DNA of 64,000 bases, taken from NCBI GenBank assembly GCA_963700285.1, contig CAVOXA010000001.1, positions 512,001 to 576,000 of the forward strand, written 5' to 3'. The position numbers and the translations under genes are program-made. Source of the DNA: an uncultured Chloroflexia bacterium (GTDB lineage: Bacteria; Chloroflexota; Anaerolineae; JAAYZQ01). Under the pieces are notes generated by a model. It had not been told where the DNA came from. It did no database searches and saw only the letters and a list, made by a program, of their open reading frames with translations. Of this stretch, positions 10,145-58,722 are shown piece after piece; position 1 is the first letter of the stretch, and each line of letters begins with the position of its first letter.

Positions 10145-10699
10145 GTGCGGGCCATCAAACGCTATCCCAACCGAAAACTCTATGATACTGCGGCCAAGCA
10201 CTATATCACGCTGGACGGAATCGCTCTGCTTATTCGCGAAGGGCAGGAGGTCAGGGTTGTGGATCATGCCACAGGCGAAGATTTGACTGCGCTGACGCTC
10301 ACGCAGGTCATCTTTGAGCAGGAGAGGAAGCGGAGTGGTTTCCTGCCCCAGTCGGTGTTGACCGGTTTGATCCAGGCTGGGGGCGAGACCGTGGGCACGC
10401 TGCGGCGTACACTCGCCGCCCCGCTGGATATGGCGCGGCAGGTGGACGAAGAGATCGAACGACGGCTCCAGACGCTCATCGGTCGCGGGGAGCTGGCTGC
10501 CGAAGAAGGGCGGCGCCTGCGCGACCAACTCATGGCCCGTAGTCAGGTGCAGCCTTTGAGGCTGGCCCTCAGCGAAGAGGACCTGAAGGAGGCTCTGGTT
10601 AGGCGCAAGGTTCCGACCCGAGAGGATCTGCAAAGAGTTCTCGAGCAGTTGGAGACCCTGACCGCAAAACTGGAGAGTGTTTTCCCTCAGCCGGAGTAG
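10145..10699 (+). CDS. phaR: PHA synthesis regulator PhaR-family protein
   Basis: [12 protein letters not shown]...YITLD...TGEDLT signature; adjacent to phasins. Confidence 0.85.
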
Positions 10700-36277: not shown

Positions 36278-36336
36278 ATTCTTGACACAGAAATGCTTGC
36301 AAAGGAGCAGTTTCATGAATCATAAAGTTTGAAGGC

Positions 36337-37021: not shown

Positions 37022-37048
37022 GCGCAATCGCTGGAACGGAGGTCAACG

Positions 37049-37998: not shown

Positions 37999-38043
37999 GG
38001 CTGGATACCTGCCAGCACGATTTGAACCTCGAAGAGGAGAACA

Positions 38044-39181
38044 ATGAGTCAGAAACTCAGTCTTCGCCGAATCAGAAAGTGGCCACGGTGGACCATCATC
38101 CCCATCGGCCTGGCGCTGGCCGGGCTGGCCATCGTGCTGGGGCTGATGCTGGAGCCGGCGGCCGACGCCCTGAGTCCCGCCACGGTCGAGCCGACGCCCA
38201 CGATGCCGACCATTGCCTACAGCGAGGGCACAAGTCGGACGGCTGCCACGACTGCCACTTTTCGCTGGCGGCACTGCAGGCCAGCGCTGCAGACCCGAGC
38301 ACTGCCGAGACGCTATCTGATCGAGGCCGAGTCGATAGTGACGCCCCACGGCAAGCTGGGCTGCCTGGCCTGCCATGGCGGCGACGGCGAGGCCGCAGGA
38401 CAAGGAGACGGCCCACCAGGGCCTCGTCGCCGACATGAGCGCCCAGGATCCGGAAAAGTGCGTCATCTGCCACGAGGATCTGCCCGACGAGATCCCCAGC
38501 GACCGGCTGCGCGTGCCCCACGGCGACATCGTCGAGCGGCATCGAGCAGGGCGAGCCATGCGACGTCCACTGCAGCGATTGCCACGGCGGCGTGGGCCAC
38601 GGCTTTGACCCGTCTCGGGCGAAAAGTTCTGCTCCATGACCGTCTGCCTGGACTGCCACCAGGAGCAGAAACCTGGAGATCCAGATGGCCGACTGCGATG
38701 CCTGCCACCTCGGCCCGCACGACGTGGCCATCTCGCTCACCTGCAACGACTGCCACACCTCCACTGAAGTGTGGCAGCGAGGTGGACTGCGGCATCCACC
38801 CGTGGCGCTGCCGGGCAAGCATGGCGAGACGGCCTGCTTCCAGTGCCACCAGTATCCCAACTTTAAGGGGCTGAACAACGTCTGCACCGACTGCCACGTG
38901 TCGGGCCACACCGACTGGGGCGATCACGACTGTGCCGAGTGCCACGACCCGGGCGGCACCTGGGACATGACGGCCTCGACCTGGGAAGGCCACGTCGAAC
39001 ACTGGGATCAGTACAAGGGCCAGCACCTCAAGGTGACCTGTGCTGGCTGCCACTTTGAGGGCTACCGACCTCGATCCCAGCTGCACGACCTGCCACACGG
39101 TACCCGAGAGCCACGACGACGGGCGGGCCGAGGATCGACTGCACAGCCTGCCACCAGGCGGACCAGCCGTGGGCGGAATAG
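38044..39181 (+). CDS. Membrane-anchored multiheme cytochrome c (about 13 CxxCH; frameshifted)
   Basis: N-terminal TM; CHDCH, CLACH, CVICH, CSDCH, CLDCH, CDACH, CNDCH, CFQCH, CTDCH, CAECH, CAGCH, CTTCH, CTACH read across frames. Confidence 0.85.
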
Positions 39182-39231
39182 AGATCAGACAGGCGAAGCT
39201 CTGATCAGCATTGAGGCTGAGAGAGAGACTC

Positions 39232-40690
39232 ATGAGCAAAACAAAGAGGTTGCCGAGTATCATGGGGCTGGCAGTCGTGATAGTGCTGCTTGCTCCTGGC
39301 AGCCCTGGTCGCTGACCGGCTGTGCGCCGAGCCGGCGGCCATCGCCGCCGTGGAGCCGACGGCCACCGCTCTATCCCCCACCGCCGACCGACATCCCTGC
39401 CTCCGCCGCCGGGACCGACGCCGGCGGCCCTGGATTTTCCGCTTGCCGGCTCCCACGCATACGGTCGAGGTGGAGCAGGTGGACGACCAGAACTGCGTGG
39501 ATTGCCACACCGACGAGGAGACGTTAAAGGCCATGGCCACAGAAGGAAGAAGAGCCAGGAAGTCGACTCTGAGGGTGAGGGCTGAGGTGGCTCATTGCCT
39601 CCGTTGGAGGCATGGGAAAAGGTCATCCTCAACCAGGAATCGTTCTTTGAGACGGTGCACGGTCGCTATGGCTGCATCACCTGCCACGGCGGGACCGGCG
39701 ACGCGGTCGACAAAGAGGCGGCCCACGAGGGCATGGTCCGCGAGCCCGCTTCGGCTGAGGCCTGCGGCGACTGCCACCCCGACCAGGTGGCCACCGACGG
39801 CGAACAGCCTGCACACCAACCTGGCTGGCTATACGACCGTGCTGGCTGCCCGCAGCGCACCGGACAAGATGGCCCAACTGGACGTGATGATGGACAACCA
39901 CTGCGACAAGTGCCACACCACCTGCGGCCAATGCCACGTCAGCCGGCCCACGAACCTGGGAGGCGGCCTGGTGGCAGGGCCACGAGTTCAAGGGGATCCC
40001 GCCCATGAACCTGACCTGCACCGGCTGTCACGGCAGCCGCATCGAGAACGAGTACAAGGGCAAGAACGAGGGCGTCAAGGCTGATGTCCACTGGATCAAG
40101 GGCGGCATGCCCTGCTTTGACTGCCACTCGGCCGACGAGATGCACGGGGCCCTGGGCGAGTTCGACCACCGCTACGACGGCCCGCCCACACCAGGCTGCC
40201 AGGATCCGAGCTGCCACCCGACGTGGCGGCCGGCGATGGCATCAGCAGCACACCAGGGTACCACTTTGAGGCGCTGAGCTGCCAGGTGTGCCACTCGACC
40301 ACCTACAAGAACTGCTACAGCTGCCACGTGGCCCTGGAGGATGGTACAGCCTACTTCAAGACCGAACCTTCGGAGATGGCCTTCAAGATCGGGCGCAATC
40401 CGCTCCAGAGCGATGACCGTCCCTGGAAATATGTGCCGGTGCGGCACGTGCCCATCGACCGCGATTCGTTCGCCTACTATGGCGAGGATCTGCTGCCCAA
40501 CTTTGACGCGCTGCCGACCTGGAAGTATGCCACACCGCACAACATCCAGCGCATCACGCCGCAGAACGAGACCTGCAACGCCTGCCATGGCAACGCCGAG
40601 TTCTTCCTGACGGCGGACGACGTGGATCCGGACGAACAGGAGGCCAACAAGGACGTCATCGTCGAGGAGCTGCCGTTCTCGATGCCATAG
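39232..40690 (+). CDS. Multiheme cytochrome c lipoprotein, putative selenoprotein (UGA 39583-39585), copy 1
   Basis: LTGC lipobox; 10 CxxCH plus one CX4CH; EGEG-TGA-GGSLPPLEAWEKV in frame; hairpin after TGA; additional indels. Confidence 0.82.
39586..39616 (+). promoter_or_regulatory. Candidate bacterial SECIS element
   Basis: CTCAT-T-GCCTCC GTT GGAGGC-ATGGG hairpin; loop G follows 17 nt after the UGA. Confidence 0.7.
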
Positions 40691-40760: not shown

Positions 40761-42284
40761 GTGATGACGATGCCAGCCACGACCAAAACCGACCTGCTGC
40801 TTCTCGGCCTGTTGCTGGACCGGCCCATGCACGGCTATGAGCTGTACCAGCAGATCCAGGCCGAAGGCATTGACCGCTGGTTCAACATCAGTGCCGCCGG
40901 CGTGTACTACTCTCTGCGCAAATTGCGCGATCAGGGACTGGTGGCCGAATCCCGCCAGCGAGCAGGAGGAAGCGCTCGCAAATCTATCTATCGCTTGACC
41001 GAGAAAGGCCGGATCGCCTTCTTTGAAGCGATGGACGTGGAGCTGGCCAACCGGGATGAGATCTATCTGGACTATGACCTGGCCATCTATCTGTTAAACA
41101 AGTATCCTCTGGTACGGGCACTGTCTCACCTGGAGCAGCGCCAGGCTTTTCTTGAAGAACAGGCTCAAGTGGTGCGGTCAGCCGTGACTGCGGAACGAAA
41201 CAATGGTAGCTCGCCCCTGAAACTGGCCATTCTGGACCACAAGCGCCGGTTCCTGGAGATGGAGCAGAAATGGCTGGCCGACGTCATCCAGAATATTCAG
41301 GAGAACGGTGAAAATTCCGGCGTCGAGGAGGGAGGACGGCGACGTCTAATGGTCCTTAGCGGGGAACTGCGTCACTATCACCTGCCTGACCTGATGCGCC
41401 TCATTGTCTCGGGCCGGCACAGCGGTACGTTGAAGGTCACCGATGGGGCAGAACTCCGCACCCTGAGTTTCGAGGGTGGGCAGCCGGTCTATGCTTCCTA
41501 TGTGCGTGCTGGTGAGCCGCCCGTGGCGCTGCCCTCCTGTGATGAGGTACTGGATGGACTGTGCGATCTGTTTCGCTGGCAGGAGGGCCAGTTTACTTTT
41601 GACCAGCAAACAGACCATGAGGAATGGAGCGTGGCTCTGGAATGCAGCGCTGAGGAACTGATGTTGCGGGGCTGCCGCAAAGTGGACAATTGGGCCATCA
41701 TCCAGAACCTGGTTGCTTCTGGCGATGCCATCTTTGAAGTGGGTTCTGCTGCCAGCACGCTGGAACGTCTGACGCTTCTGCCGGGTGAGGAACGGGTGGT
41801 GGCAGCGGTAGATGGCGTCAAGGACGTGGCGACCGTCGCCCGAGATCTGGATCTGACATTGTTTGAGACCAGCCGGATCTTTTACTGTCTGGCCGCCATT
41901 GGGGTGTTGCGTACCGCCGACCTGGACAAGATCCGCTTGCGGCGCGTCTTTCGAGAGATAGCCGAGCTGATATGTACCAGCACCATCCCCTGGCGTGCTA
42001 GCCCGGATGATAGGGCCTGCGAGGAGGAGGTCAACCATAGGGTTAGGCATTTACCTCTGAGGCTGGAAAACGGACGGATGATAGACCTGGCCGATCCCCA
42101 ACTGGGGATGGAGGAACTGAAAGAGATGTATCTCCAGTTTCTGGTGGACCAGTTCCGGGTCATCAGCCAGCGCTTTGGGCACTCGAACGCCCGTCAAGCT
42201 TTCGAACGGGCTTTGCACCAACTGGCGCCTGAGCTACAGGCAGTGGCCAAGCGCTATGGCTTTGATCGACTGACGATTAACTAG
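40761..42284 (+). CDS. PadR-family regulator fused to a DUF4388/PATAN-like domain, copy 1
   Basis: LLGLLLDRPMHGYEL...YRLTEKGR PadR; LSGEL....LPDL......SG.L...LFRWQEGQFTF DUF4388-like. Confidence 0.85.
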   Translation: MMTMPATTKTDLLLLGLLLDRPMHGYELYQQIQAEGIDRWFNISAAGVYYSLRKLRDQGLVAESRQRAGGSARKSIYRLTEKGRIAFFEAMDVELANRDEIYLDYDLAIYLLNKYPLVRALSHLEQRQAFLEEQAQVVRSAVTAERNNGSSPLKLAILDHKRRFLEMEQKWLADVIQNIQENGENSGVEEGGRRRLMVLSGELRHYHLPDLMRLIVSGRHSGTLKVTDGAELRTLSFEGGQPVYASYVRAGEPPVALPSCDEVLDGLCDLFRWQEGQFTFDQQTDHEEWSVALECSAEELMLRGCRKVDNWAIIQNLVASGDAIFEVGSAASTLERLTLLPGEERVVAAVDGVKDVATVARDLDLTLFETSRIFYCLAAIGVLRTADLDKIRLRRVFREIAELICTSTIPWRASPDDRACEEEVNHRVRHLPLRLENGRMIDLADPQLGMEELKEMYLQFLVDQFRVISQRFGHSNARQAFERALHQLAPELQAVAKRYGFDRLTIN

Positions 42285-44003: not shown

Positions 44004-45251
44004 CACGGCTGTGCGTAGGGACCGGAAAGGCTACCGCTCGGAGATTGGCCGGTAGTGCGACGCGCATCCGGCAGGGTCTCAAAACTGACATCCCGTAGCA
44101 AGCCCAACACCAGGTTATTGATAGCGGCCATCGCTTGTGCTCCTTGGCCCTTCAATCTGCAGCGATCCTCTTTTAGGGTATCATCGCGACGGAAATGAAG
44201 CCCGTTTTCAATGCCCAATGACCACGATTAAGCGCTAACAGTCGGTCCGCATTCGCCTCATCTCTTGTCAGGCTGCTTACGCCATACGAGACTTCCTGGA
44301 AGACCTTGTCATCCGAGGTGCGTACAAAATGGCGTTCTAGACGGAAGACCTGCTCGCAATCAGGCCACTTTACATACTCCTTCAGCATGCTACTGCTGGT
44401 CAGGGTTCGTCGTTCCCGGCGGCCATGTCCTTTTCCATGAGTGGTTGCCGTCTGGAAATCTTTGTGACACGGACTGAATCCACCGGTGCACATTTCGGGC
44501 TCAAACAAGGTTTCGATGTCTCGTTTCAACTGCCCCTGATTGTCCTTCACCCTCCAGACATAGTCCCCACCATCTTCCACTATCGCCATCGATAGCTCCC
44601 GCTGCGTCAACAATGCGTCGCCGGTCACTACTTTTCCTCGCAAATCAAGCTGTTTGATGGCTCGCATGGCGGCTGGAATCTCGTTTTCGTGGCTACCCAC
44701 CTCGACCTGAAACGCGACCCAGCCCTCTTCCGGCAAATATGCGCTTAGTAGATGAACACCTCTAGTTTTACCCTCCGGGATCGTGGCCCGCATCGTCTTG
44801 CCATCCAGATTGATCAGAATGCTTTGTCCTGTCCCCGGCTGCTCCTGAAAGAAATCACGGACTACTTGTTCAAAGGCATCAATGTCTATTGCCTTGTTCA
44901 GAACGCGGCTGTACGTCGTGGCGTGTGGTGCTCGCGCCTTGGACAGCCCCAGGGCCTCGGCCAAAACCTCTTTGCGGAGCGCTACCCACTGTGCAATCCC
45001 GCGTAGATGGTCTTCTCCACTCAGCTTGGCCAGGACGATGAATACCAATACGGTCACCAAGGTGAGCGCAGCCCGCGCGCATCACGTCGATCCTGGAGCT
45101 CGGCCAAGGCGGCGAACAAACTGTCCAAATCAATGACGAGTCCTTCGGGCCTCAGATTGACATCGAACGAAAGCGGAATATACTTCATCTTGCCCCTCCT
45201 TGGTTCCTGGGTTGCTCATCACTCTCCCAATACCAAGGTAGGGGCTTTTTT
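44004..45251 (-). mobile_element. ISAs1-family insertion sequence; transposase starts at 45188 and is frameshifted near 45070 and 44200; ends approximate
   Basis: LDGKT.R, ENEI, VTGDALLTQ, VKDNQ, HGRRERR and RGHW.IEN.LH motifs. Confidence 0.85.
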
Positions 45252-45701: not shown

Positions 45702-46073
45702 ATGACAGGCGCCGCAAATGGTTTCAAGGCCCAAGCCCAGCTTTTCCGGGCGCTCTCGCACCCGGTGCGGCTGCGTATCTTGGACATCTTGGCTCACCAG
45801 GAAGCCTGCGTCTGTCACCTGACGTGCATCCTAGGCCAGCGTCAGCCCTACGTCTCGCAACAGTTGGCCACCCTCAGAGATGCCGGCCTGGTGGCCGATC
45901 GCCGCGAGGGCACCTTGATCTACTACCGGCTCGCCGACGATCACCTGGCTAGACTGCTCGACGCGAGCAGGACGGTGGTTCGAAATCTTGACGGAGATGG
46001 CCTGGTTTTTCCGGTGGCTCCAGAAGTGGCCCTGGAGAACTGCCCCTGTCCGCGCTGCCAGGGCGAGGGCTAA
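45702..46073 (+). CDS. ArsR/SmtB family metalloregulator
   Basis: FRALSHPVRL, ACVC, SQQLA.LRDAGLV and C-terminal CPCPRC. Confidence 0.9.
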   Translation: MTGAANGFKAQAQLFRALSHPVRLRILDILAHQEACVCHLTCILGQRQPYVSQQLATLRDAGLVADRREGTLIYYRLADDHLARLLDASRTVVRNLDGDGLVFPVAPEVALENCPCPRCQGEG

Positions 46074-46151
46074 CTCGTTCCATTATTCGGGTAGATCCTC
46101 AATCCTGTGAATCTGCGGGTGAACAGCTGGCAGAGACCGATGGAGGTCGAT

Positions 46152-47648
46152 ATGTCTATCGCGGAATGGATCATCACCCTGCTGCAGTCGGGAGTCAGCA
46201 GCCTGGCATCCTACCTGGCTGCGCACGTTCTGCTCTGCCTGGTACCCGCCTTTTTCATCGCCGGGGCCATGACGGCGCTGGTTCCCAAGGAGGCCATCAC
46301 ACGCTACCTGGGCCGCAACGCCTCGCCGTGGGTCTCCTATCCCATGGCCGCTGCGGGGGGCTTTGTCCTGGCCGTTTGCTCCTGTACGATCCTGCCTCTC
46401 TTTGCCAGCATCTATGCCCAGGGCGCCGGGCTGGGACCGGCCATCACCTTCCTGTTTGTCGGGCCGGCCATCAACATCCTGGCCGTCAGCTACACCGGTG
46501 TGGCCCTAGGTATGGATATCGCCATCGCCCGCATTGTCCTCTCACTGGTGTTTGGCATCGGCATCGGCTTGATCATGGCCTTCCTCTACCGCCGCGATGA
46601 ACAGGCTCGAACTGAGGCGTTGGGACAGAGCAAGGTAGCTGCCGGTCAAGCCTTTGCGGCCAGCGCCAGTATCAAGGGTGCGATCCTTATCTTCTTGTTG
46701 TTGCTTCTGTCGGCCCTGATCGTCGGTACACTGCGGGTGGATCTCCTGACCGGTACCTACAGCCAGGTCAACCTGCCTTTGGCTAATGCTGACGGCTGGC
46801 AAGTTGCCCTGGACCGGCTGGTGCCCTACGACGCCAGTCAGGGACAGGAGGGGGTTTCGGTCCATGGCCTGTTTCTCATCGGCCTGCTGGGCCTCATCGG
46901 CGTGGCGTCCTGGTTGGGGCTGAACAACATCGACGAGGGGTTCCACGCCTGGTCTTGGGTGGCGCTGGGCCTCATCGTGCTGACCCTCCTGGTGGCGGCG
47001 TTGCAGATCACGGTCACGGCCAGTGGCGTTCAGATCAATATCACCGGCCGGTTTGTTGCCGAAGTGATCGTCATCGGCGCCGTGGTGTTAGTCGCCTGGA
47101 AAGGGCTGGACGAGTTCGAGGTACAGGAATGGTTGTGGGAGACGTGGCGATTTGTAAAGCAGATCTTCCCTTTGCTCATCGTGGGCGTCTTTTTGGCTGG
47201 CATGGTGCGGGTGTTGATCCCGCCCCAGTTGATCGAGACCATTGCCGGGGAGAATACCCTGCTGGCCAACCTGGCCGGCGTGCTCTTTGGCGTGTTCATG
47301 TACTTTCCCACGCTGGTCGAGGTGCCCATCGCCAGGATGTTCCTGGAGCTGGGCATGCACCGCGGGCCGTTATTGGCCTATCTGATCGCCGACCCGGCGT
47401 TGAGTATCCAAAGTATCCTGATTACGGCCAAGGTCATTGGCAAAGCCAAAACTTGGATCTATGTTGGCCTGGTGACGGTATTTGCCACAACGGCTGGCTT
47501 GCTCTACGGGGCCTGGGTGGATGGGGCCAGCCTGTGGCTGATCCTCGCGGCCCTGGCAGTTTTTCTGGGCCTTTTGGTTCTGGCGCTGTGGCTGGTTGGC
47601 CGCCGTACGAACCGTGCCCCGGTCCCGGCCAAGACAGCGCAGACGTAG
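46152..47648 (+). CDS. ArsP/DUF318-family permease
   Basis: HVLLCLVPAFFIAG, AVCSCTILPLF and YFPTLVEVP motifs. Confidence 0.88.
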   Translation: MSIAEWIITLLQSGVSSLASYLAAHVLLCLVPAFFIAGAMTALVPKEAITRYLGRNASPWVSYPMAAAGGFVLAVCSCTILPLFASIYAQGAGLGPAITFLFVGPAINILAVSYTGVALGMDIAIARIVLSLVFGIGIGLIMAFLYRRDEQARTEALGQSKVAAGQAFAASASIKGAILIFLLLLLSALIVGTLRVDLLTGTYSQVNLPLANADGWQVALDRLVPYDASQGQEGVSVHGLFLIGLLGLIGVASWLGLNNIDEGFHAWSWVALGLIVLTLLVAALQITVTASGVQINITGRFVAEVIVIGAVVLVAWKGLDEFEVQEWLWETWRFVKQIFPLLIVGVFLAGMVRVLIPPQLIETIAGENTLLANLAGVLFGVFMYFPTLVEVPIARMFLELGMHRGPLLAYLIADPALSIQSILITAKVIGKAKTWIYVGLVTVFATTAGLLYGAWVDGASLWLILAALAVFLGLLVLALWLVGRRTNRAPVPAKTAQT

Positions 47649-47713
47649 ACCAGACTGGATCTTGAGGTACCAGCATTCATATGCTGAGCTTTATACTGGA
47701 AGGAGAGTTTGTC

Positions 47714-47983
47714 ATGGAAGTCAAGGTTCTGGGCACGGGCTGCCCCAACTGCAAACGGCTGGAAAAGGTCACGCGCCAGGCTCTGGATGAGCTGGGCGTC
47801 GAGGCTTCGGTCACCAAGGTGACCGATTTCGGCGAGATCATGACCTACGATATCCTGTCGACGCCAGGCTTGGTCATCGATGGAACTGTGGTTTCTTCAG
47901 GACGGGTACCCAGCAAGGCCGAGGTGGCTTCCCTGATCACTGCGGCCCTGCCGCCGGCCGGGGAGCAAATTCACCGAAGCTAA
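47714..47983 (+). CDS. Small redox-active disulfide protein (MTH895-type thioredoxin)
   Basis: VLGTGCPNC...TPGLVIDG. Confidence 0.9.
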
Positions 47984-47995
47984 AGGAGGCGACAA

Positions 47996-48253
47996 ATGTT
48001 GCAGATCAAGGTCTTTGGCACCACGCCGCCCTGCGCCAACTGCAAGCGGGCGGAGAGAGAGGCCCGCAAGGCGGCCGAGAAATTTCCCGGCCAGGTGGAG
48101 GTCGTGCACCTGGACGCGCTGGGATCGGAGGCCCAACGGTACGGGCTGATGGTGACGCCCGTCGTCGTCATCGGTGACGAGGTGGTCAGTAGCGGCAAGG
48201 TCGTACCGGCCCCCAGGCTGATACCCATGGTCGAGCAAGCATTGCAGAACTAA
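47996..48253 (+). CDS. Thioredoxin-like protein
   Basis: PPCANC and cis-Pro TP motif. Confidence 0.85.
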   Translation: MLQIKVFGTTPPCANCKRAEREARKAAEKFPGQVEVVHLDALGSEAQRYGLMVTPVVVIGDEVVSSGKVVPAPRLIPMVEQALQN

Positions 48254-48268
48254 TCAAGGAGGCAAAAC

Positions 48269-48538
48269 ATGGTCAATCTGGAGATATTCAGCGGCGACCC
48301 ACCCTGCCCGGGCTGCGTCGCCATCATCGATCTGGCCGAGAAGGTGGCGGCCAGGTATCCCGGCGAGCTGGCGTTGAGCATCTTGAAAGGCCAAGACGCC
48401 ATGGAAAAGTTTGAAGCTTATAAACTCTTCTGCGTGCCGGCGGCCGTCGTCAATGGCTCCATCCGCATCGAGGGCATGTGCCCCAGCGAAGCGACTCTGA
48501 ACAACGCACTGCGGGAGGGGGGACTATGCTTAAAGTAA
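48269..48538 (+). CDS. Thioredoxin-like protein
   Basis: PPCPGC, CVPA.VVNG and GMCP. Confidence 0.82.
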   Translation: MVNLEIFSGDPPCPGCVAIIDLAEKVAARYPGELALSILKGQDAMEKFEAYKLFCVPAAVVNGSIRIEGMCPSEATLNNALREGGLCLK

Positions 48539-48792
48539 AGATGGAGGCTTTTGTGTCGATCCCACCCTGCTCCGGCGGGGTGGCCCTGAAACGGTTGCTG
48601 AAAGAGATCGAGTCGGAATTCGGCGAGCAGGTGGAGGTCGTCTTTCACACCGGCCCGGGCGATCCCGAGTGGGACGAGTATGCCATCAACAACGCCCCGG
48701 CCCTGGTCGTGGGCGACCTGGTCAAGTTCGTGGGACTGGCCCCCAGCAAGGCCAGCCTGGTCGGCGCCCTGCGCGAGGCAGGTCTAGAGTAG
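48526..48792 (+). CDS. Monothiol thioredoxin-fold protein
   Basis: PPCSGG and APALVVG; overlaps the upstream stop codon region. Confidence 0.78.
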   Translation: MLKVKMEAFVSIPPCSGGVALKRLLKEIESEFGEQVEVVFHTGPGDPEWDEYAINNAPALVVGDLVKFVGLAPSKASLVGALREAGLE

Positions 48793-49179: not shown

Positions 49180-50701
49180 CTAAGGAGCCAGCAGCTTGTC
49201 AAACTCGTATCGCCTGGCCACAGTCTGGAGTTCGGGGGCCAGTTGATTCAGCGTCCGCTTGAAGGACTGGCGGGCGTTCTCACGTCCAAATCGCCGGCTG
49301 ACCACGTCCAGTTGAGCCAGCAGGAAGGCGCGGTACATCTCTACCAATCCGTCGGTTTTCAGCCGAGGATCAGCCTGGTCCTCGATCCGACCCTGGTTGA
49401 TGCACAGGGGCAGACCGTCAGTGAGCCGATTCACTTCCTGTTCGCAAGAACGATCATCGGGTGCGTTTCGCCAGGCGACGGTGCTGCTGCACATAAGCTC
49501 TGCGATCTCGCGAAAGACGCGGCGCAAGCGGATCTTGTCCAGGTCTGCGGTGCGTACCACGCCCACAGCCGCCAGACAGTAGAAGGCCCGGCTGGCCTCA
49601 AAGACAGTCATGCCCAGTTCGCGGGCGATGCTGGCCACATCCTTTACGCCGTCGAGGGATTCCAGGATCTGCTGCTCGGTGGGTGTGAGCGTCAGCCCTT
49701 CCACGCCCTCAGGGGCCATACCCAGCTCAAAGATAGCGTCGGCCGAGGATACCAGGCGCTGGATGATGGTCCAGTTGTCCACCCAGCGGCAGCCACACAG
49801 GATCAGGTCCTCGGCGCTGAGCGTCAGGGGCACGCACCATTCCTCGGATGCCATCTCCTGGTCAAAGGTGAACTTGCCCTCCTGCCAGCGGAACAGGTCG
49901 CACAGGCCCTCGATCACCTGTTCTGGCGCCGGTGGGGGAGTCGCCGGCTCGTCCTTGCGGTGGGACGTGGCGCAGACCGGCTGGCCTTCCTGGAAGGTCA
50001 GGGTACGAACCAGTATGCCATCGGTGACGGTTAGCCTGCCGCTGTGCTGGCCCGAGACGATAAGGCGGATCAGATCGGGCAGGTGATAGAGGCGCAGATC
50101 ACCACTCAGGATCATGAGCCCACGCTGTTCGTCCGTTCGGGCATCATCCGCCTGGCCCTTCCCCTGGATACTGCGGATCACATCGGCCAGCCACTCTTGC
50201 TCCATCTCCAGAAAGCGGCGCTTGTGATCCAGGATGGCAAGTTTCAGAGGGGACCGGCCATGTGCTCGTTCTTCCACCAGAGCGGCCAGCAGGTCCCCAT
50301 CTTGCTGGACCAGGAATGCCTGGTGCTGCTCCAGCAGATCGATGGCTCGCTGCAGGGGAAGTTTGTTCAGCAAGTAGATGACCACGTCATAGTCCAGGTG
50401 AGGGCTTGTCCTGGCTGACCGCCTGCTCCTCCATGGCCGCGAAAAAAGCGGCCCGGCCATCTTCGGTCAGACGATAGATCGACTTGCGGGCGCTGCGCCC
50501 TCCCCGCTGGCGCGATTCTGCCACCAAGCCCTGATCCCGCAGCTTGCCCAGGGAATAGTACACGCCGGCCATGCTGACGTTGAACCAGCCGTCAATCCCC
50601 TCGGCCTGGATCTGCTGGAAAAGCTCGTAGCCGTGCATCGGCCGGTCCAGCAGCAGGCCCAGGAGCAATAGATCGATTTTGGTCGCGGATAGTGCGCTCA
50701 T
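49180..50701 (-). CDS. PadR-DUF4388 regulator, copy 2 (frameshift near 50400)
   Basis: Colinear with 40761-42284, for example LDKIRLRRVFREIAEL.C and PDDR.CE.EVN. Confidence 0.85.
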
Positions 50702-50773: not shown

Positions 50774-50843
50774 TTGACAAGCATTGGAGGCTATGTTATA
50801 ATCCAGCCCGAGTCAGAATCAATAGAGTATTCAGGATTGAGTA
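50774..50843 (+). promoter_or_regulatory. Promoter and operator of the rhodanese operon
   Basis: TTGACA-17-TATAAT with extended -10; TATTCAGGATTGAGTA at 50828-50843. Confidence 0.72.
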
Positions 50844-50949: not shown

Positions 50950-52110
50950 ATGAAAAAGCTCGCAGTATTGAACCTCGTTTTGGCCCTCAGCTTGCTGCTG
51001 GGGTCCGCCGCCTTGGCCCAGGAGCCTGAGGGTGACTTTGGCGTTATCCAGCGCACCCTGGACGCCGCCCTGGACGGTTGGAGCCCGGTCATCGGCGCCG
51101 ACGCCCTGTTCGAGAATCTGAACGACGGCGATACCTCCAATGACCCCTTTATCGTCAGCGTCCGCGCTCCCGATGACTACGCGTTGGGCCACATTCCCGG
51201 CGCCATCAACATTCCCTGGAAGACCATCGCCAAGCCCGAGAGCCTGGCCCAGCTGCCCACCGACAAGCCGATCGTGGTCTATTGCTACACCGGCCACACC
51301 GGCCAGCTTTCGGCCACCATCCTGAAGGCCCTGGGCTACGACGTCCAGAACCTCAAGTTCGGCATGATGGGCTGGACCCAGAATGACAAAGTACTGGCGA
51401 CGACACGCTTTGGCCCCGACACCGATCAGCGCGACTACCCGACGGAGACCGAGGCCAACGAGGCCACCGAGACCTATGCCTATCCCGAAGTCGCCACCGG
51501 CGAGGAAGATGCCTTTGAGATCGTGCGCGTCGCCGCCGATACCTGGATCAACTCTGATGCATCGCCCATCGTCTCGGCTGACTCGGTCTTTGACGTCCTG
51601 AACGACGGCGACGACAGCAATGACCCGTTCATCGTCAGCGTCCGCGCACCCGACGACTATGCCCTGGGTCATATCCCTGGCGCCATCAACATCCCCTGGG
51701 CGGCGATTGCCAAGCCTGAGAACCTGGCCAAGTTGCCGGCTGACAAGCCAATCCGTACCTACTGCTACACAGGCCACACCGGTCAGGTGGCGGGCACGGC
51801 TCTGGGCCTGCTGGGTTACGATGTCGCCAACATAAAGTACGGCATGATGGCCTGGACCGAGGATGACGAAGTGCTGGCCACGGCCCGCTACAATCCCGAG
51901 ACTTCGCCCGATTACACCATCGAGGGTACGGCCGCTGAGGCACCTGCCGCCGAAGAGGTAGTCGCCGAAGAGACTGCAGCCGAAGAAACAGCCCCCGCGA
52001 CCGTGCCTGAGACCGGTGGCGCTGCCTTCCCGGTCGAAGGTCTGCTGCTGGGCTTTGGTACGCTGACCGCTGCCGCTGGTCTGTACCTGCGCCGGCGCAA
52101 CGCAGCCTAA
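50950..52110 (+). CDS. Secreted tandem-rhodanese sulfurtransferase with VPETG sortase-type sorting signal
   Basis: Signal peptide ending ALA; two GHIPGA..CYTGHT domains; VPETG, hydrophobic helix, RRR. Confidence 0.88.
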   Translation: MKKLAVLNLVLALSLLLGSAALAQEPEGDFGVIQRTLDAALDGWSPVIGADALFENLNDGDTSNDPFIVSVRAPDDYALGHIPGAINIPWKTIAKPESLAQLPTDKPIVVYCYTGHTGQLSATILKALGYDVQNLKFGMMGWTQNDKVLATTRFGPDTDQRDYPTETEANEATETYAYPEVATGEEDAFEIVRVAADTWINSDASPIVSADSVFDVLNDGDDSNDPFIVSVRAPDDYALGHIPGAINIPWAAIAKPENLAKLPADKPIRTYCYTGHTGQVAGTALGLLGYDVANIKYGMMAWTEDDEVLATARYNPETSPDYTIEGTAAEAPAAEEVVAEETAAEETAPATVPETGGAAFPVEGLLLGFGTLTAAAGLYLRRRNAA

Positions 52111-52199
52111 GCTCTACTAGTGTTTTCGCGCTCGGGTGGGTGCTGCTGCATGCGGCACTCACCCGTTTGCTATGTGACAAAGAAGGGAGCAACCAGAAG

Positions 52200-53300
52200 A
52201 TGAAAAAGCTCTCAGTATTGAGTTTCGTGTTGGTCCTCAGCCTGTTGTTGGGTACGGTGGCCTGGGCCGCCGATGACATCCTGGCGGCCGCGGACGACTA
52301 TTTCAGCGGCGGTACCAAGAATATCTCTGCCAGCGATCTCTTTGACAACCTGAACGACGGCGACGATATCAACGACCCCTATGTCATCAGCGTTCGCAGC
52401 CAGGAAGACTATGATAAGGGCCACATCCCGGGAGCGGTCCACATGGACCCCAAGACCATGTTCACCGCGGAGAGCTTGGCCACCCTGCCCACCGACAAGC
52501 AGATCGTCGTCTATTGCTATACCGGCCAGACTTCCAGCCAGGTCGTGTCGGCCCTCAACATGCTGGGCTACGACGCTTACAGTATGCTCTTTGGCTTTTG
52601 CGCCTGGAATTCGGACCCCAATGCTGGCGGCAAGTGCTTTAGTGACAGCATGGGCAGCGATTATCCGACCACGACCGATCCCACCGCCGTGGCCATGATC
52701 GCTTATCCACCGGCCACTCCGCTGGCCGACACCACCCAGGCCGCGGCCGATGCCTATTTCAACAACGGTACCAAGAACATCAAAGCATCTGACCTGTTCG
52801 ACAACCTGAATGATGGGGACAGCAGCAACGATCCCTGGATCATCAGCGTTCGCTCGGCGGAGGACTATGAGAAGGGCCACATTCCCGGTGCTGTCTGGGA
52901 AGATTACAAAACTATGTTCGGCCAGGATGGCCTGATATCCATTCCGCCCGAGAAGCTGATCGTCGTCTACTGCTACACCGGCCAGACCGCCAGCCAGGTC
53001 ACCTCGGCCCTCAACATGCTGGGCTACGATGCCTCCAACCTGCTGTTTGGCATGCAGGGCTGGACGATGGACAAGGACGTGCGGGCCAAGTTCTTTGACC
53101 CCGAGACACAGCTCAACGAGTATCCCTACGAGGGAACCGCGGCTGAAGGCGCCGCGGAAGAGACCAGCACCGAATCTGTTCAGCCTGAGACCGTGCCCGA
53201 GACCGGTAGCGCGGCGCCGCCGGTGGACGGTATCCTGCTCGGCTTTGGTGCGCTCACTGCTGCCGCAGGCCTGTACCTGCGCCGGCGCAAGGCAGTGTAG
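52200..53300 (+). CDS. Second secreted tandem-rhodanese with VPETG sorting signal
   Basis: Signal peptide ending AWA; two GHIPGA..CYTGQT domains; VPETG, hydrophobic helix, RRRK. Confidence 0.88.
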   Translation: MKKLSVLSFVLVLSLLLGTVAWAADDILAAADDYFSGGTKNISASDLFDNLNDGDDINDPYVISVRSQEDYDKGHIPGAVHMDPKTMFTAESLATLPTDKQIVVYCYTGQTSSQVVSALNMLGYDAYSMLFGFCAWNSDPNAGGKCFSDSMGSDYPTTTDPTAVAMIAYPPATPLADTTQAAADAYFNNGTKNIKASDLFDNLNDGDSSNDPWIISVRSAEDYEKGHIPGAVWEDYKTMFGQDGLISIPPEKLIVVYCYTGQTASQVTSALNMLGYDASNLLFGMQGWTMDKDVRAKFFDPETQLNEYPYEGTAAEGAAEETSTESVQPETVPETGSAAPPVDGILLGFGALTAAAGLYLRRRKAV

Positions 53301-53580: not shown

Positions 53581-53609
53581 TTGACGGATCAGGCATGCTG
53601 TGATAGAAT
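53581..53609 (+). promoter_or_regulatory. Promoter of selenocytochrome copy 2
   Basis: TTGACG-17-TAGAAT with extended -10 TG. Confidence 0.55.
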
Positions 53610-53712: not shown

Positions 53713-55259
53713 ATGGGTAGAACAACAAAGTTCCCAAAGATGTGGAGTGAGGCGCTGGTTGCCCTTCTCATGCTCATGGTCCCCTTGCTGCTGATCACCT
53801 GCGGTGGGCAGCCTACAGAGGTGGCCGTGGCGCCGACGGACGCGCCCGCTGAGGTCGCTCCGACCGATGCGCCTCCAACGGAGGCACTTACTGATGTACC
53901 TCCTACGGAGCCCCCGCCCACTCAGGCGCCAACCGAGCCTCCGCCGACCGAAGCTCCTACGGAACCGCCGGCGACCGACACGCCAGAGCCCACGGATGAA
54001 CCAACGCCGGAGCCAACAGACGCGCCGATACCGGAAGCTGTGGACGATACGGCTTGCATCGGTTGCCATACGGACGAGGAAACCCTCAAGCTCGTCGCTG
54101 AAGAGGAAGAAAAGCCCGAGGTAGAATCCGAAGGCGAGGGCTGAGGCGGCTCTGTGCCTCCGTTGGAGGTATGGGAGAAGGTCTTATATCAGCGACGAGA
54201 CCTTTGTAGATTCGATCCACGGCAAGATGGGCTGCATCACCTGCCACGGTGGTGCCAGCGGCGTCGAGGACAAGGAAGCGGCCCACGAAGGCGTGGTCCG
54301 TGATCCCGATTCGGTGGAGAAATGCGCCGTCTGCCACATGGAGACGGTTGAGGCAGACCAGAATAGCCTGCACTCGCAACCTGGCTGGCTATACTGACCG
54401 TTCTCTCCGCCCGCTCCACCCCGGACAAGATGCCCCAGCTCGAAGAGATGATGGGAAATCACTGCGACTACCTGCCACACGAGCTGCGGCCAGTGCCACG
54501 TCAGCCGGCCCACCAACCTGGGCGGCGGCCTGACGGCGGGTCATGAGTTCAAGAAGGTGCCCGCCCATGAACCTGACCTGCACTGGCTGTCATGGCAGCC
54601 GCATCGAGAACGAGTACAAGGGCAAGAACGAGGGCGATCAAGGCCGACACCCACTGGATCAAGGGCGGCATGCCCTGCTTTGACTGCCACACGTCTGACG
54701 AGATGCACGGCAAGCTGGGCGAGGCCGAGCATCGCTATGACGGCCCGCCGACGCCCAGCTGTACGGACGCGGACTGCCACCCAGATGTGGGCCCGGCGAC
54801 GGCAATGTCTACCACAGCGAGTTCCACTATGATGCGCTGAGCTGCCAGGTCGTGCCACTCGACGACCTACAAGAACTGCTATAGCTGTCACGTGGCCCAG
54901 GAAGACGGCGTGCCCTTTTTCAAGATCGAGCCGTCGGTGATGGACTTTAAGATCGGCCGCAACCCGCTCCAGAGCGACGACCGGCCCTGGGAGTACGTCC
55001 CGGTCCGGCACGTGCCCATCGATACCGAGTCCTTCGCCTACTATGGTGAGGACCTGCTGCCCAATTTTGACGCGGTGCCGACCTGGAAGTATGCCACGCC
55101 ACACAACATCCAGCGAATACACCTCAGACCGAGAGCTGCGATGCCTGTCACGGCAATGCCCAGTTCTTCCTGACGGCCGAGGATGTGCTGCCCGAAGAGT
55201 TGGAGGCCAACAAAGACGTTATCGTCGAAGAGCCGCCACCAGCCATGGGTGGGAGGTAA
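53713..55259 (+). CDS. Multiheme cytochrome c lipoprotein, putative selenoprotein (UGA 54142-54144), copy 2
   Basis: LITC lipobox and PTE linker; EGEG-TGA-GGSVPPLEVWEKV; same 11 heme motifs as copy 1; several indels. Confidence 0.82.
54145..54175 (+). promoter_or_regulatory. Candidate bacterial SECIS element
   Basis: GTGCCTCC GTT GGAGGTAT hairpin at the same offset from UGA as in copy 1. Confidence 0.7.
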
Positions 55260-55386: not shown

Positions 55387-56613
55387 TTACTCAGCTCCGT
55401 GGCACACCGTGCACTGCGTGTTGGCATAGTCGCCGTGGTTGGATGGGGCAGGCCTGACTTGCCCGTCAAGGCTGTGGCACATCAGACAATCCTCCTGGCC
55501 TGCCAGCCCGTGGGAGATCTGTGGCGAGAGGCTGACGACCAAGGCGGCCATGGAAGATGCCCATCCTTCCGGCGTGTGGCAGACGGTACAGTCGCCCGAT
55601 AGGTGGCCCTCTGGCCGCTGATGGCATGTGCTGCACTCGTGCTTCGGTGCGGGCTTGCCCCCGCCATGGCATCCCTCGCATGGCGCGCTCTGATGGGCAC
55701 CGGTCAGTTCCACGGGGTGCAGTTCTGCTGGCAGGACCGCCGCGTCCTGGAAGCCTATGGGCGTGTGGCAATCCTCACAGGCTGGGCCATAGTGGGGCTG
55801 TCCTGGCGGCTCGTGGCAGTCGCTGCAGCTGACTCCAGTCGCCTGCTCAAAGCTCGTGTTCGGGTGACAGTCGGAGCAAGCAGCCTGGGCATGCCCGGCC
55901 GTCAGCTCTAGCGGGTGTGTCGCCATCTCTACCTGCTGCCATGCCTCTGTCGACTGGTGGCACCCGCTGCAGTCCATGGTTCCCGTTGGTTCATGGGCAG
56001 CGATGTGGCAGGTGTCGCAGTCGCTCAGCTCGCTGTTCAGCTGCTGCGTCTGGTGGCAGTCCAGGCAGACACGCATTGGACAGATGATCTCCCCACTAAC
56101 CGGGTCATAACCGTGACCGACGCCACCGTGGCAATCACTGCAGGCTACTCCCACGGCCTCGCCGTGGCTCACGGCGTCGTGCGGGGTGCGCAGCCGGTCT
56201 TCCGGGAACTCGGCGGGTAGGTCTGGGTGACAGGCAATACAAACTCCGGCATTGCCGATACTTGGGTCAGTGACCATGCCCCTATGGGCCCTTTCCCTAT
56301 CTACAGCGACGGCGTCGCCATAATGACACGTTGCGCAGGTCAGCCGGCCGTGGGGAGTATCTTTCGGTTGAGGTTCGATGACCAGGCGTGCCATCTCGCC
56401 ATCTGTGGCGCCCTCACTGGCCAGTACTTTTGGGTCCAGGTGGCATGTCTGGCAGTTTTCTGAGCGTGGATCGGCTGTCGCTGGCTGCTGGGCCCTGGAT
56501 GCCTCCGCTCGGGTCAGCGGTTGTAGAAGCAGTACTACAAAGACTGTGAGCAGGATCAGCCCCGTGCCGGCCAAGACCACGGCCCGGCGAGACCATCGTC
56601 GGGTCGCCGGCAC
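55387..56613 (-). CDS. Membrane-anchored multiheme cytochrome c (15 CxxCH)
   Basis: 15 CxxCH counted in one ORF; N-terminal TM; paralogous to 38044-39181. Confidence 0.9.
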   Translation of the reverse strand: MPATRRWSRRAVVLAGTGLILLTVFVVLLLQPLTRAEASRAQQPATADPRSENCQTCHLDPKVLASEGATDGEMARLVIEPQPKDTPHGRLTCATCHYGDAVAVDRERAHRGMVTDPSIGNAGVCIACHPDLPAEFPEDRLRTPHDAVSHGEAVGVACSDCHGGVGHGYDPVSGEIICPMRVCLDCHQTQQLNSELSDCDTCHIAAHEPTGTMDCSGCHQSTEAWQQVEMATHPLELTAGHAQAACSDCHPNTSFEQATGVSCSDCHEPPGQPHYGPACEDCHTPIGFQDAAVLPAELHPVELTGAHQSAPCEGCHGGGKPAPKHECSTCHQRPEGHLSGDCTVCHTPEGWASSMAALVVSLSPQISHGLAGQEDCLMCHSLDGQVRPAPSNHGDYANTQCTVCHGAE

Positions 56614-57746
56614 TCTGCCCCGATAGGCGACCGCCTGGCAGGATGGGTAGGAAGCGAACCGCTAGCGCAAAGATGAGCACGCCGGCCGCGATCGCCGCCG
56701 CTGAGACGACCAGCTCCATCCAGTGCGGAAAGTACGACGCCCCAGACGGGGCGCTCTGGGCCACCAGGGCGACGCTGGTGCGGTTGATAGGCCAGGCCCA
56801 GCAGCACACAGCCGGATCCAGCGATCAGACCCGTGCTGCTTTCCCTGATCTTGCGCTGGCCAAAGAGCACCATGGGCAAGATCACGCCGATCAGGATTTC
56901 GGCCAGGAACAGAGCCGCTGTACCTGCCCTCCGAGAACACCATCCCAGCTCGCCAGCAAGGATCAGGTCGGCTACCTTGAGTACCAGGTAGAAGCCCAGC
57001 AGCACCGACACGACCCGGGCCAAGTTGCTGAGCAAGTTCAGGTCCAGACCGCAATGAAAGATCCTCTTGCAGATCGATCCGACAAAGATGGCCATGGATA
57101 GCCCGGCAAAAGCGGCCGATGTGAAGAAAAATAGTGGCAGCAGCGGCGTCCACCACAAAGGATGGAGTTTGTAGGGCATGAGCAGGAACAATGAGCCCAG
57201 CGAGGACTGGTGCAGCGACGACAGCACGATCCCGGCGCCAGCAGTCAGCACGGTGAGCATCCCGATAAGGCGCAGAGGTTTCTGCCAGTTCAGGCGCTCC
57301 AGCACGGCAGGGGCAACCTCCAGGAGCATGATGCCCATATAGATGGTCAGGCAGATGCTGACCTGGAACATAAAGGAGTGGATGTTCCAATACCAGGGAA
57401 TGAGGACGTTGTAGAACTGGTGCCAACGACCCAGATCCATTACCAGGACTGCAATGACCATCACTTCGCCAAGAAAGCCGGCCAGAACTACCGGTCGAGC
57501 GATGCTGTGGTACTCCCTGCGGTTGTAGATGTGGGTTACGGCCAGGATCATGAACGCCCCGGCAGAGAAGGGCACAAAGAATACATCATACACGATCCAC
57601 AGGCCCCAGGGATAGCCATCGCTCAGGCTCGTCGTAGAGCCCAAGCCGTTGATCATGCGGACGATGCCCACCCCCGCCCCAACGGCGACGAGGACGGCCA
57701 GGAGAAGGAGGCCGATGGGCACACGGCGTTTGCTGGTCAGGATCAT
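56614..57746 (-). CDS. NrfD-family membrane subunit (HybB/HmcC-like); frameshifted, 3' end uncertain
   Basis: GLG..T.LSDGYPWGLWI, DLGRW, SSLHQSSLGSL and LHPLW motifs. Confidence 0.88.
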
Positions 57747-58675
57747 GGCTCGATCTCCTCTTCTTCGCCCGCCTTTTGGTCAGGCAGCGACTCCTCGTAC
57801 CGGATCTTCTGCCGCCGGCCGCCGGACAGGTAGTAGAGGCCGCCCAACATGAATGCAACACTCGCCGCAACACCAGCCGAGCCATAGGTGGCTACCGCCT
57901 CACTCAGTGCCGTGACAGGCTCTGACTTGAGCTCGGGGAAGCCCAATTCCTCAAAGGGTACGGGGGAAAGATAGATCCAGGATGTGCCCCCGACCTCTTC
58001 CCTGCCGTAGACGTGATGGACATACCGATCAGGATCTGCCTGGATGCGCGCCTCGGCTTCCACGATCAAGGCATCCCGGTCGCCGAATACAAGGGCCCCG
58101 GTCGGGCAGGCCGCAGCGCAGGCGGGCTCCATCCCCATTTCCTGCCGGTCCACACAGAAGGTGCATTTGCGAATCCGGGGCAGCGCCTCAGCCCATTCGA
58201 ACTTGGGTACGCCAAAGGGGCAGGCCACCATGCAGTAGCGACAGCCGATGCACCGGCTGCAGTCATAGACCACGGCGCCATTCTCCAGTTTTTGCAGGGC
58301 GCCCACCGGGCAGGCTGACACGCAGGCCGGATCCTGGCAGTGCATGCACTGCCGCTTGACAAAGACCCGGTATTGCTGGCCGTTTCTCTCGATTTCATAC
58401 AATTCGGGTAGGGTCCAGGTTTCTGCTGAGAGGCAGGTTCCGGTCGGGTTGCTCTCTTGACCTGGGCCCTGCTCCCCCTGCAGGTGATTCCACTGGCTGC
58501 ACGCTTCCTGGCACCATCCACAGCCAATGCACTTTGTGAGATCGCTCAGCATACCCTTCGATCCGGTCGATGGGGTCCTAATGGACGGTGACGCGTTGGT
58601 GGTGCTGCCTGGCAGCAACATAGCCCCCGCAGCGATCCCGCAGACCTGAAGGAATTTTCTTCGATCAAGCTCCAT
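57743..58675 (-). CDS. Tat-exported 4x[4Fe-4S] protein (HybA/HmcB-like)
   Basis: DRRKFLQ; CIGCGWC, CMHCQDPAC, CIGCRYC, KCTFC; YG..EVGGT; C-terminal TM. Confidence 0.92.
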   Translation of the reverse strand: MELDRRKFLQVCGIAAGAMLLPGSTTNASPSIRTPSTGSKGMLSDLTKCIGCGWCQEACSQWNHLQGEQGPGQESNPTGTCLSAETWTLPELYEIERNGQQYRVFVKRQCMHCQDPACVSACPVGALQKLENGAVVYDCSRCIGCRYCMVACPFGVPKFEWAEALPRIRKCTFCVDRQEMGMEPACAAACPTGALVFGDRDALIVEAEARIQADPDRYVHHVYGREEVGGTSWIYLSPVPFEELGFPELKSEPVTALSEAVATYGSAGVAASVAFMLGGLYYLSGGRRQKIRYEESLPDQKAGEEEEIEP

Positions 58676-58722
58676 TGCTTTTCTCCTCATTCCTTTTCCA
58701 GATTATTCTTGGCTGAATGGCC

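Follow-up and report, generated by a model that had tools for sequence, protein, structure and literature searches.

Tandem rhodaneses with predicted sortase anchors encoded ahead of a putative selenium-containing multiheme cytochrome in an uncultured Chloroflexia bacterium

In Geobacter, the extHIJKL(MNOPQS) cluster is described as encoding a rhodanese lipoprotein, ExtH, together with the selenocysteine (Sec)-heme polysulfide reductase MccSep/ExtKL (PMC5877670, PMC13510729). The MccSep paper leaves open by what route polysulfide gets to the catalytic site and whether there are partner proteins for sulfur transfer (PMC13510729). In addition, Desulfurivibrio dismutans is reported to encode a secreted tri-rhodanese within its Psr operon (PMC12142623). 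Here, we describe a locus in an uncultured Chloroflexia bacterium, on a 64,000-nucleotide (nt) stretch (GenBank assembly GCA_963700285.1, contig CAVOXA010000001.1, positions 512,001 to 576,000) referred to below as the window. Two neighboring genes, A and B, encode secreted proteins with two rhodanese domains and a VPETG tail, and they are followed by a gene for a multiheme cytochrome c with an in-frame TGA, the selenocytochrome (Table 1). Based on sequence comparisons, we propose with moderate confidence that A and B are wall-anchored sulfur carriers that would feed a selenium-containing multiheme reductase.

Similar to the ExtH-MccSep system, an exported rhodanese is encoded here with a predicted Sec multiheme cytochrome and a quinol-linked electron-transfer module. 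In contrast to MccSep, which is described as having 5 hemes and Sec 325 in a C-terminal immunoglobulin-like domain, the present cytochrome has 10-11 heme motifs with the predicted Sec between hemes 1 and 2; its host, unlike Geobacter, is a monoderm with predicted sortase or lipid anchoring and no porin (PMC5877670, PMC13510729). MccSep was thus ruled out as its identity by heme count, by Sec position and by the lack of a match at E<=1 to the ExtKL model, NF040886. Sud/Psr of Wolinella succinogenes, in which an exported Cys-rhodanese concentrates polysulfide sulfur for a terminal reductase (PMC6378623), illustrates the role that we propose for A and B. The Sud/Psr and D. dismutans rhodaneses, however, are described as periplasmic or lipoproteins and pair with a molybdopterin enzyme, whereas those described here have an xPxTG tail and a predicted Sec-heme partner. 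SrrE and SrrF of Bacillus selenitireducens (38 and 45 kDa) are likewise two rhodanese-domain proteins with an extracytoplasmic reductase in a monoderm, a likeness by description alone, and their partner differs in being a Tat-exported (twin-arginine translocation) molybdoenzyme-type catalytic subunit (PMC12481199).

A further parallel is found in Dethiobacter alkaliphilus, where DealDRAFT_1917, a 10-heme protein with no signal peptide, is encoded beside a rhodanese (DealDRAFT_1917/1918) and is up-regulated on thiosulfate; a 39.3-kDa hypothetical protein adjoining the rhodanese showed a 2.4-fold increase on thiosulfate relative to Fe(III) (PMC10376724). DealDRAFT_1917 was once mislabeled as a thiosulfate sulfurtransferase and matches the post-TGA fragment of our cytochrome in size and labels, which is a likeness by description only. 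It is treated as SirA-like in PMC10376724, where the word selenocysteine has 0 occurrences. Both the mapping of WP_008516925.1 to DealDRAFT_1917 and the family kinship were deduced from size, heme count and neighborhood only. A literature search, made mostly without subscription journals, found no description of a sortase-anchored rhodanese or of such a cytochrome. By analogy, the A/B-cytochrome pair would work like ExtH-MccSep or Sud-Psr, yet it belongs to neither.

Rhodanese genes A and B and the putative selenocytochrome gene

Genes A and B both begin with ATG behind a ribosome-binding site of the AAG(A/G)AGG type. Their products each contain two PF00581 domains, with scores of 120.6 and 110.2 bits, far over the cut-off of 22.2. 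On re-reading, the signal peptide, paired Cys-containing rhodanese domains, NDGD..NDP loops and acidic spacer listed for both proteins in the initial annotation were all present. The signal peptides were judged by eye (MKK, a hydrophobic stretch, A-x-A), and the gene B model has a helix there. The active-site loops are CYTGHT in A (51283 and 51763) and CYTGQT in B (52515 and 52971). The rhodanese Cys occupies the first of the six loop positions (C112 and C272 in A; C106 and C258 in B) and is invariant in homologue alignments of 55 and 51 sequences. An NDGDxxNDP acidic loop is found in all four domains (51121, 51601, 52353 and 52809), and the form DG[DN]xx[ND][DN]P is retained in 492/506 homologue domains; that it forms a Ca2+ site is a guess. 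The AlphaFold2 model of gene B has a predicted local distance difference test (pLDDT) score of 86.8 and matches rhodaneses (best E 1.7e-12). Its single domains reach a template-modeling (TM) score of ~0.84 to small rhodaneses, and the pair of domains as arranged here fits classical tandem sulfurtransferases poorly when superposed; a sequence search of solved structures found generic rhodaneses only. Based on profile score, modeled fold and loop Cys, A and B belong to the rhodanese superfamily PF00581, and sulfurtransferase activity is predicted. Neither reaches the ExtH model NF040901 (12.5 and 14.1 bits against a cut-off of 200), and their named homologues are from Anaerolineae or Chloroflexota. 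A related-locus search of the genome contigs with gene B alone yielded one marginal, unrelated locus. The assembly comprises 7.05 Mb in 22 contigs, is 89% complete and contains many frameshifts.

The linkage of such rhodaneses to the cytochrome was assessed in a class sample of 301 genomes, which includes related genomes and for which the rhodanese and cytochrome lists were compared by hand. Rhodanese was found in 50/301 and cytochrome in 66/301 genomes (17-22% for the module), and 47 of the 50 had both. In 36 of the 47 loci fetched, a cytochrome junction lies <1.5 kb downstream; nine run into contig ends and two lack a recognizable loop. Cytochrome thus follows rhodanese in 36/36 assessable loci, and no locus with enough DNA lacked it. 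Fusions tie the two more closely. In two genomes, a single frame of 1120-1180 amino acids, ending in a transmembrane helix, joins four rhodanese domains to the Sec junction and the cytochrome, and 9/120 homologues of gene B terminate at the cytochrome TGA. In a separate architecture (P0270 and P0308), the cytochrome is fused to a C-terminal SseA-like sulfurtransferase. Twenty further regions, covering the cytochromes of 18/19 'cytochrome-only' genomes and two extra copies, included seven with distant rhodaneses (27-36% identity) beside the cytochrome and three with fragments of the A/B family at contig ends; four cytochrome copies without TGA had no rhodanese match (two of them on short contigs). 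Because fusions occur in both orders and the rhodanese can be replaced by other rhodaneses, function rather than inertia appears to maintain the association. It is therefore highly probable that rhodanese and cytochrome would act in one pathway, and the earlier suggestion that the rhodaneses feed the cytochrome draws strong support from both synteny and fusions.

Ahead of its TGA, the selenocytochrome frame encodes a lipoprotein-type N-terminus, the Pro/Thr linker and one CxxCH motif, and read-through continues beyond it. An intact gene of 516 amino acids, with 10 CxxCH motifs and one CxxxxCH, is present in a genome of the same genus, and the single-base indels at 54183, 54466, 54560, 54635-6, 54852 and 55113 have no counterpart in RNA-library contigs; for these reasons, the frameshifts in our copy are probably assembly or sequencing errors. 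The genome holds two selenocytochrome copies only, and the junction around the TGA is the same in both. One pattern caught 58 junctions, with TGA in 56, TTG in one and TGG in one, and two more diverged copies without TGA escaped it. Codons 3′ of the TGA are frozen (CCT in 42/43 for the first Pro and CCG in 50/50 for the second), with control prolines mixed. A hairpin is found at +11 to +34 in 51/51 unique contexts, with z ~ -3.1 for the two window copies, and it is still present in the TGG copy. At the Sec column, 14 of 37 read-through homologues have Cys, 8 have Trp and 15 have other residues, and selA, selB and tRNA-Sec are present in the genome. Taken together, these sequence features make it very probable that the TGA is decoded as selenocysteine, a feature that the initial annotation had missed.

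In close homologues, Sec is most often replaced by Trp, whose codon is one base from TGA, and in distant ones by Cys. One rhodanese-cytochrome fusion, P0257, has Trp in place of Sec. In three relatives, the cytochrome copy at the position of our second copy lacks TGA (Leu, Trp or diverged), which suggests a non-catalytic or differently fed paralogue at that position.

The cytochrome family is covered by none of 18950 NCBIfam models. Three Anaerolineae proteins did not match TIGR04315 (octaheme tetrathionate reductase, OTR), and one distant homologue scored 24.4 against a cut-off of 375. At E<=0.001, 495 representative homologues were found, among them proteins of Desulfovibrio ferrophilus, other Desulfobacterota, Sulfurovum and further phyla. 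Most database entries begin just past the TGA, and the family has been overlooked by annotation because gene callers cut there. Among cytochromes, a selenoproteome review from 2026 names ExtKL, GSU2204 and an octaheme protein of the TIGR04315 type, and its passages on cytochromes do not include the present one (PMC13188914). The model of the cytochrome (pLDDT 84, no hemes) has OTR of Shewanella oneidensis (1sp3) as its nearest solved fold, a moderate match covering most of OTR (Z 9.4, root-mean-square deviation 4.7, 269 residues aligned; next Z 4.3). It differs from OTR in showing 16% identity and more hemes, with the N-terminal heme and Sec loop outside the aligned range. MccSep is not among the fold matches, which carries no information. 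A sequence search of solved structures with the cytochrome found nothing.

We were also interested in the two loop types. A domain tree was built from 93 domains with the active-site loop masked and two long-branch rows (L072) removed; the alignment is short and the method quick. In this tree, 45/46 H domains fall on one branch (Shimodaira-Hasegawa-like approximate likelihood ratio test 99), and the H/Q label changes twice, against a shuffled mean of 31. An earlier quick tree that included the H/Q column gave the same result, and the two types also differ at five other alignment columns. One family member has a Q gene and then an H gene ahead of the cytochrome, and four-domain HHQQ lipoproteins make up 7/120 homologues. 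Most loci have one domain type only, and the same-genus genome has an H gene alone. On these comparisons, H and Q are predicted to be old paralogous subfamilies, each able to serve alone and interchangeable for the core job. The idea that H and Q loops divide substrates is therefore borne out in part: the two subfamilies and the recurring HHQQ proteins speak for it, and the sufficiency of one type at most loci speaks against it. H and Q carriers may differ in sulfur-donor preference.

The VPETG tail as a probable sorting signal

The VPETG, hydrophobic and RRR tail noted initially is present in both proteins, and the distance of 108 nt from VPETG to the stop is exact in both genes. This length is common to nearly all close homologues, so it is not peculiar to the A/B pair. 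Its description as near-identical was too strong; with 28/35 amino acids and 87/108 nt identical, the two tails are rather similar, compared with 16/23 for the signal peptides and 47% for the aligned proteins overall. The 35-residue spacer before VPETG contains 10 Asp or Glu residues in A and 9 in B.

Five sortases are encoded in the genome (PF04203 above cut-off), each with G-H, TLxT/SC and Arg, together with peptidoglycan genes (murG and three genes with transglycosylase domains). A strict, genome-wide scan of 9244 stop-to-stop frames of at least 200 amino acids, run with seven control motifs, found 12 xPxTG tails versus 0-4 per control motif. The 12 include A and B themselves and eight further convincing substrates, with the last two probably due to chance, so that the search proposed earlier for a sortase and other xPxTG proteins succeeded on both counts. 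In two cases, a PPDTG protein adjoins a sortase gene divergently. With the LPXTG anchor model TIGR01167 (cut-off 15.9), gene B scores above (16.9) and gene A below (12.5). The tail is present in 95/120 and 104/120 homologues (two lists sharing 3 proteins), and 7 listed homologues are labeled 'LPXTG-motif cell wall-anchored protein' by the Joint Genome Institute. Within the motif, P, T and G hardly vary, and the first residue is L, M, V, I, T, S or A. Homologues without a tail mostly carry a lipobox or a cytochrome fusion. By regular expressions, tail and lipobox occur together in 0/120 and 0/120 homologues and in 0/44 locus genes; the 44 comprise 24 with a tail, 11 with a lipobox, 2 fusions and 7 with neither or truncated. 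The tail is a likely anchor because it alternates with a lipobox or fusion and never stands alongside a lipobox. The five sortases, the peptidoglycan genes and this mutual exclusion give the surface tethering by sortase that had been suggested good support, and we predict with considerable confidence that A and B are sortase-anchored to the cell wall. Their plan resembles that of LPXTG-type substrates (signal peptide, motif, hydrophobic stretch and basic tail). They differ from known LPXTG substrates in that the cargo is a predicted redox sulfur carrier and the host sortases fit no defined class.

Other surface proteins of this genome also have such tails. The PPDTG-tailed proteins are found divergent from their sortase genes at C5:94092-97553 and C1:1227991-1231112, and a third PPxTG-type tail, PPGTG, is encoded at C10:1228138-1228776; possibly, the PPxTG signal has a dedicated sortase class. 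At C14:696586-746633, three secreted paralogues contain repeated VHASPDAPAVD motifs and have LPTTG/MPETG tails; they are presumably DUF4397-like, and a repeat protein with LPQTG at C14:654674 is one that we take to be lipoprotein_15-like. An exosortase gene with an adjacent EpsI-like gene (C1:1373206-1374084, L006) is present in this monoderm genome, and the scan found no PEP-type substrate for it.

Proposed mechanism and its alternatives

The mechanism that we propose is drawn by analogy with MccSep (PMC13510729) and with Sud/Psr (PMC6378623, PMC12142623). By cutting the VPETG tail, a sortase would attach A and B to the wall, next to the lipid-anchored cytochrome. The cysteines of A and B would load sulfane sulfur as persulfides and hand it over to the eleven-heme lipoprotein cytochrome, where Sec, as in MccSep, would attack the persulfide S-S bond next to a heme. 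Electrons would come from the quinone pool via the adjacent HybA/NrfD/multiheme modules, and sulfide would be released. Such modules lie beside each of the two cytochrome copies in this genome and likewise in the same-genus genome, and we have moderate confidence in this electron supply. The analogues point, with a fair degree of confidence, to polysulfide, elemental sulfur or thiosulfate as the substrate and to the reductive direction.

Several observations weigh against this scheme or its parts. Given the terminator-like hairpin between A and B and the separate promoter-like site 5′ of the cytochrome gene, the three genes may not form one transcript. One TGA-bearing cytochrome (L090) has no rhodanese match in 16 kb, and the related genomes in our sample are not independent. 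The Sec position is occupied by Trp, Leu or another residue in 23/37 read-through homologues, so Sec/Cys is dispensable for some members. Co-occurrence is of little help for either selenium or sortase: selA is near-universal (48/49 genomes; 261/301 in the class) and is thus uninformative, and a sortase is found in 49/49 tested genomes whatever the anchor and thus has no discriminating value. All five sortases fall below the class-specific cut-offs, and an exosortase is encoded too (TIGR02602, 140.6 against 105.55). The Z of 9.4 to OTR barely exceeds the typical best chance Z of 7-8 and comes from a model without hemes, and Foldseek returned no match for the cytochrome model at E<=0.001.

The exosortase bears on the anchoring step only. 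The VPETG tail could be an uncut C-terminal membrane anchor or be processed by the exosortase, in which case it would be no sortase substrate; VPET resembles VPEP, gene A falls under the TIGR01167 cut-off, some homologues have PxNG, PxSG or AxTG variants, and the fusions of rhodanese and cytochrome finish with a plain transmembrane helix and RR. We consider this improbable, since near-invariant P, T and G behind a variable first residue is the sortase pattern and LPxTG tails are found on unrelated proteins of the genome, two of them beside sortases. The A/B tail reads PETG, with T and G conserved, in place of the PEP motif of exosortase substrates, and the genome scan yielded no [VI]PEP tail. 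A wider doubt would be that the carriers, sortase-anchored or not, are surface sulfur scavengers or cyanide detoxifiers unrelated to the cytochrome, with the gene order due to descent only. The strong promoter consensus of gene A's own, followed by the terminator-like hairpin, would suit such a role; two independent fusion architectures, replacement in place by distant rhodaneses and the 36/36 assessable loci largely refute it and leave it very improbable.

With a shared pathway of rhodanese and cytochrome retained, substrate and direction are to be considered. MccSep is reported to reduce selenite in vitro as well (PMC13510729), and the rhodanese-domain genes srrE/srrF stand in the selenite reductase operon of B. 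selenitireducens (PMC12481199), both of which leave room for a substrate other than sulfur. The substrate could accordingly be a selenium or tellurium compound (selenite, Se0 or polyselenide), with the rhodaneses carrying perselenides for respiration or detoxification, and ArsR, an ArsP-type permease and small thioredoxin-like genes are indeed found 3-5 kb upstream. The ArsP link to the module is known from the same genus alone, however, and the module occurs in 17-22% of class genomes, with near-identical RNA-library contigs from ordinary sediments, in which selenium is much scarcer than sulfur species; a selenium substrate is therefore unlikely. Alternatively, the reaction could run in the oxidative direction or as part of sulfur disproportionation, with Sec-heme oxidizing sulfide or thiosulfate, the rhodaneses collecting the sulfane product and electrons passing to the quinone pool. 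NrfD/HybA modules run in either direction. The His/Cys-heme enzymes TsdA and SoxAX are described as catalyzing an oxidative reaction (PMC13510729), and secreted rhodaneses are reported as abundant in sulfur disproportionators (PMC12142623, PMC6378623). Against this, dsrA was not found in the 89% complete genome, which leaves no evident onward route of sulfur oxidation, and the two nearest functional analogues, MccSep and OTR, are reductases; we regard the oxidative alternative as quite improbable.

Returning to reductive sulfur transfer, we tentatively suggest, with slightly more doubt than belief, a widespread third type of sulfur reductase. This would be an OTR-like eleven-heme selenoenzyme with Sec-heme S-S cleavage independent of MccSep, fed by dedicated carriers that are tethered by sortase, lipid or fusion and whose H and Q types are tuned to different sulfane donors; about one fifth of Anaerolineae would then be extracellular sulfur respirers. 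If the cytochrome reduces sulfur, 66 of the 301 genomes sampled from this class, which is abundant in sediment, would have a respiratory pathway that is unseen by dsr/psr marker surveys, and Anaerolineae, long read as fermenters, would respire sulfur extracellularly by a so far undescribed route. Since the carrier and the Sec-heme enzyme are genetically tied, and sometimes form one polypeptide, sulfur hand-over is directly testable. The locus also provides Chloroflexota sortases, for which the searched literature yielded no experimental work, with a concrete redox substrate. What is new from this window is the analysis of the anchor, the recognition of H/Q subfamilies and a genome that combines both rhodanese types with two copies of the cytochrome.

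Genomic surroundings and transcripts

Table 1. Positions, in the window, of the rhodanese and selenocytochrome genes and of associated features.
Feature	Coordinates	Strand	Details
Sigma-70 consensus promoter	50774..50802	+	TTGACA-17-TATAAT with TG extension; 12/12 matches; 147 nt 5′ of gene A; consensus match only
Gene A	50950..52110	+	386 amino acids; signal peptide, two H-type rhodanese domains (CYTGHT), acidic spacer, VPETG signal
Gene A sorting signal	52003..52110	+	VPETG, hydrophobic stretch, RRR
Terminator-like hairpin between A and B	52133..52165	+	14 pairs; 1 found, 2.7 expected by chance; weak
Gene B	52200..53300	+	366 amino acids; signal peptide, two Q-type rhodanese domains (CYTGQT), acidic spacer, VPETG signal
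Gene B sorting signal	53193..53300	+	VPETG, hydrophobic stretch, RRRK
Promoter-like site 5′ of cytochrome	53581..53609	+	10/12; consensus match only
Selenocytochrome gene	53713..55259	+	Lipoprotein multiheme cytochrome c; Pro/Thr-rich linker; in-frame TGA; frameshifted several times in assembly
In-frame TGA, predicted Sec	54142..54144	+	Context SEGEG-U-GGSVPPLEVWEK
Hairpin 3′ of TGA, like a selenocysteine insertion sequence (SECIS)	54152..54175	+	From folding
HybA-like 4Fe-4S protein, NrfD-family membrane protein, 15-heme cytochrome	55387..58690	-	Convergent; candidate quinol-to-cytochrome donor module
Second selenocytochrome copy	39232..40690	+	TGA at 39583; same hairpin; frameshifted; ends FeS-NrfD-multiheme cluster

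Four sigma-70 sites were found against 1.5 expected, among them the perfect one ahead of gene A. Four sediment metatranscriptomes, probably from one campaign, contain zero-difference contigs over most of gene A and over short pieces of B and the cytochrome gene, which fits transcription of the module in sediment. The RNA runs were chosen for holding this stretch, and their contigs cannot rank genes. A 19.6-kb control stretch gave 16 short RNA-library records in all, at a stricter identity (97 vs 88). Uncovered stretches are no evidence of silence, and habitat was judged without the runs that had small word shares.

In the convergent candidate donor module, the genes for the NrfD-family protein and the 15-heme cytochrome overlap (55387-57746, minus strand); the same-genus genome has a single gene of 785 amino acids here, and the split is probably a frameshift. 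The second selenocytochrome ends a cluster without rhodanese (36300-40690, plus strand) that encodes an iron-sulfur protein, an NrfD-type membrane protein and a multiheme cytochrome (these three at ~36300-39200). Just past the window end (C1:576516-585485) are four more frames with 5-13 CxxCH motifs, and 6/11 frames of the genome with at least four such motifs sit in this single island.

The region is flanked by two PadR and DUF4388 regulators that are paralogous to each other (40761-42284, plus strand; 49180-50701, minus strand). The latter is divergent from gene A, with a promoter region in common, and may therefore regulate the module. The stretch that separates the two cytochrome clusters contains an ArsR regulator, the ArsP-type permease, which is also found in the same-genus genome, and four small thioredoxin-like genes with CxxC (45702-48792, plus strand), as well as a transposase-like gene (44173-45060, minus strand) that we take to be of the ISAs1 type. 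Farther upstream (9074-10699, plus strand) are what we take to be two phasin-like genes and a PhaR-like regulator, which suggest polyhydroxyalkanoate storage.

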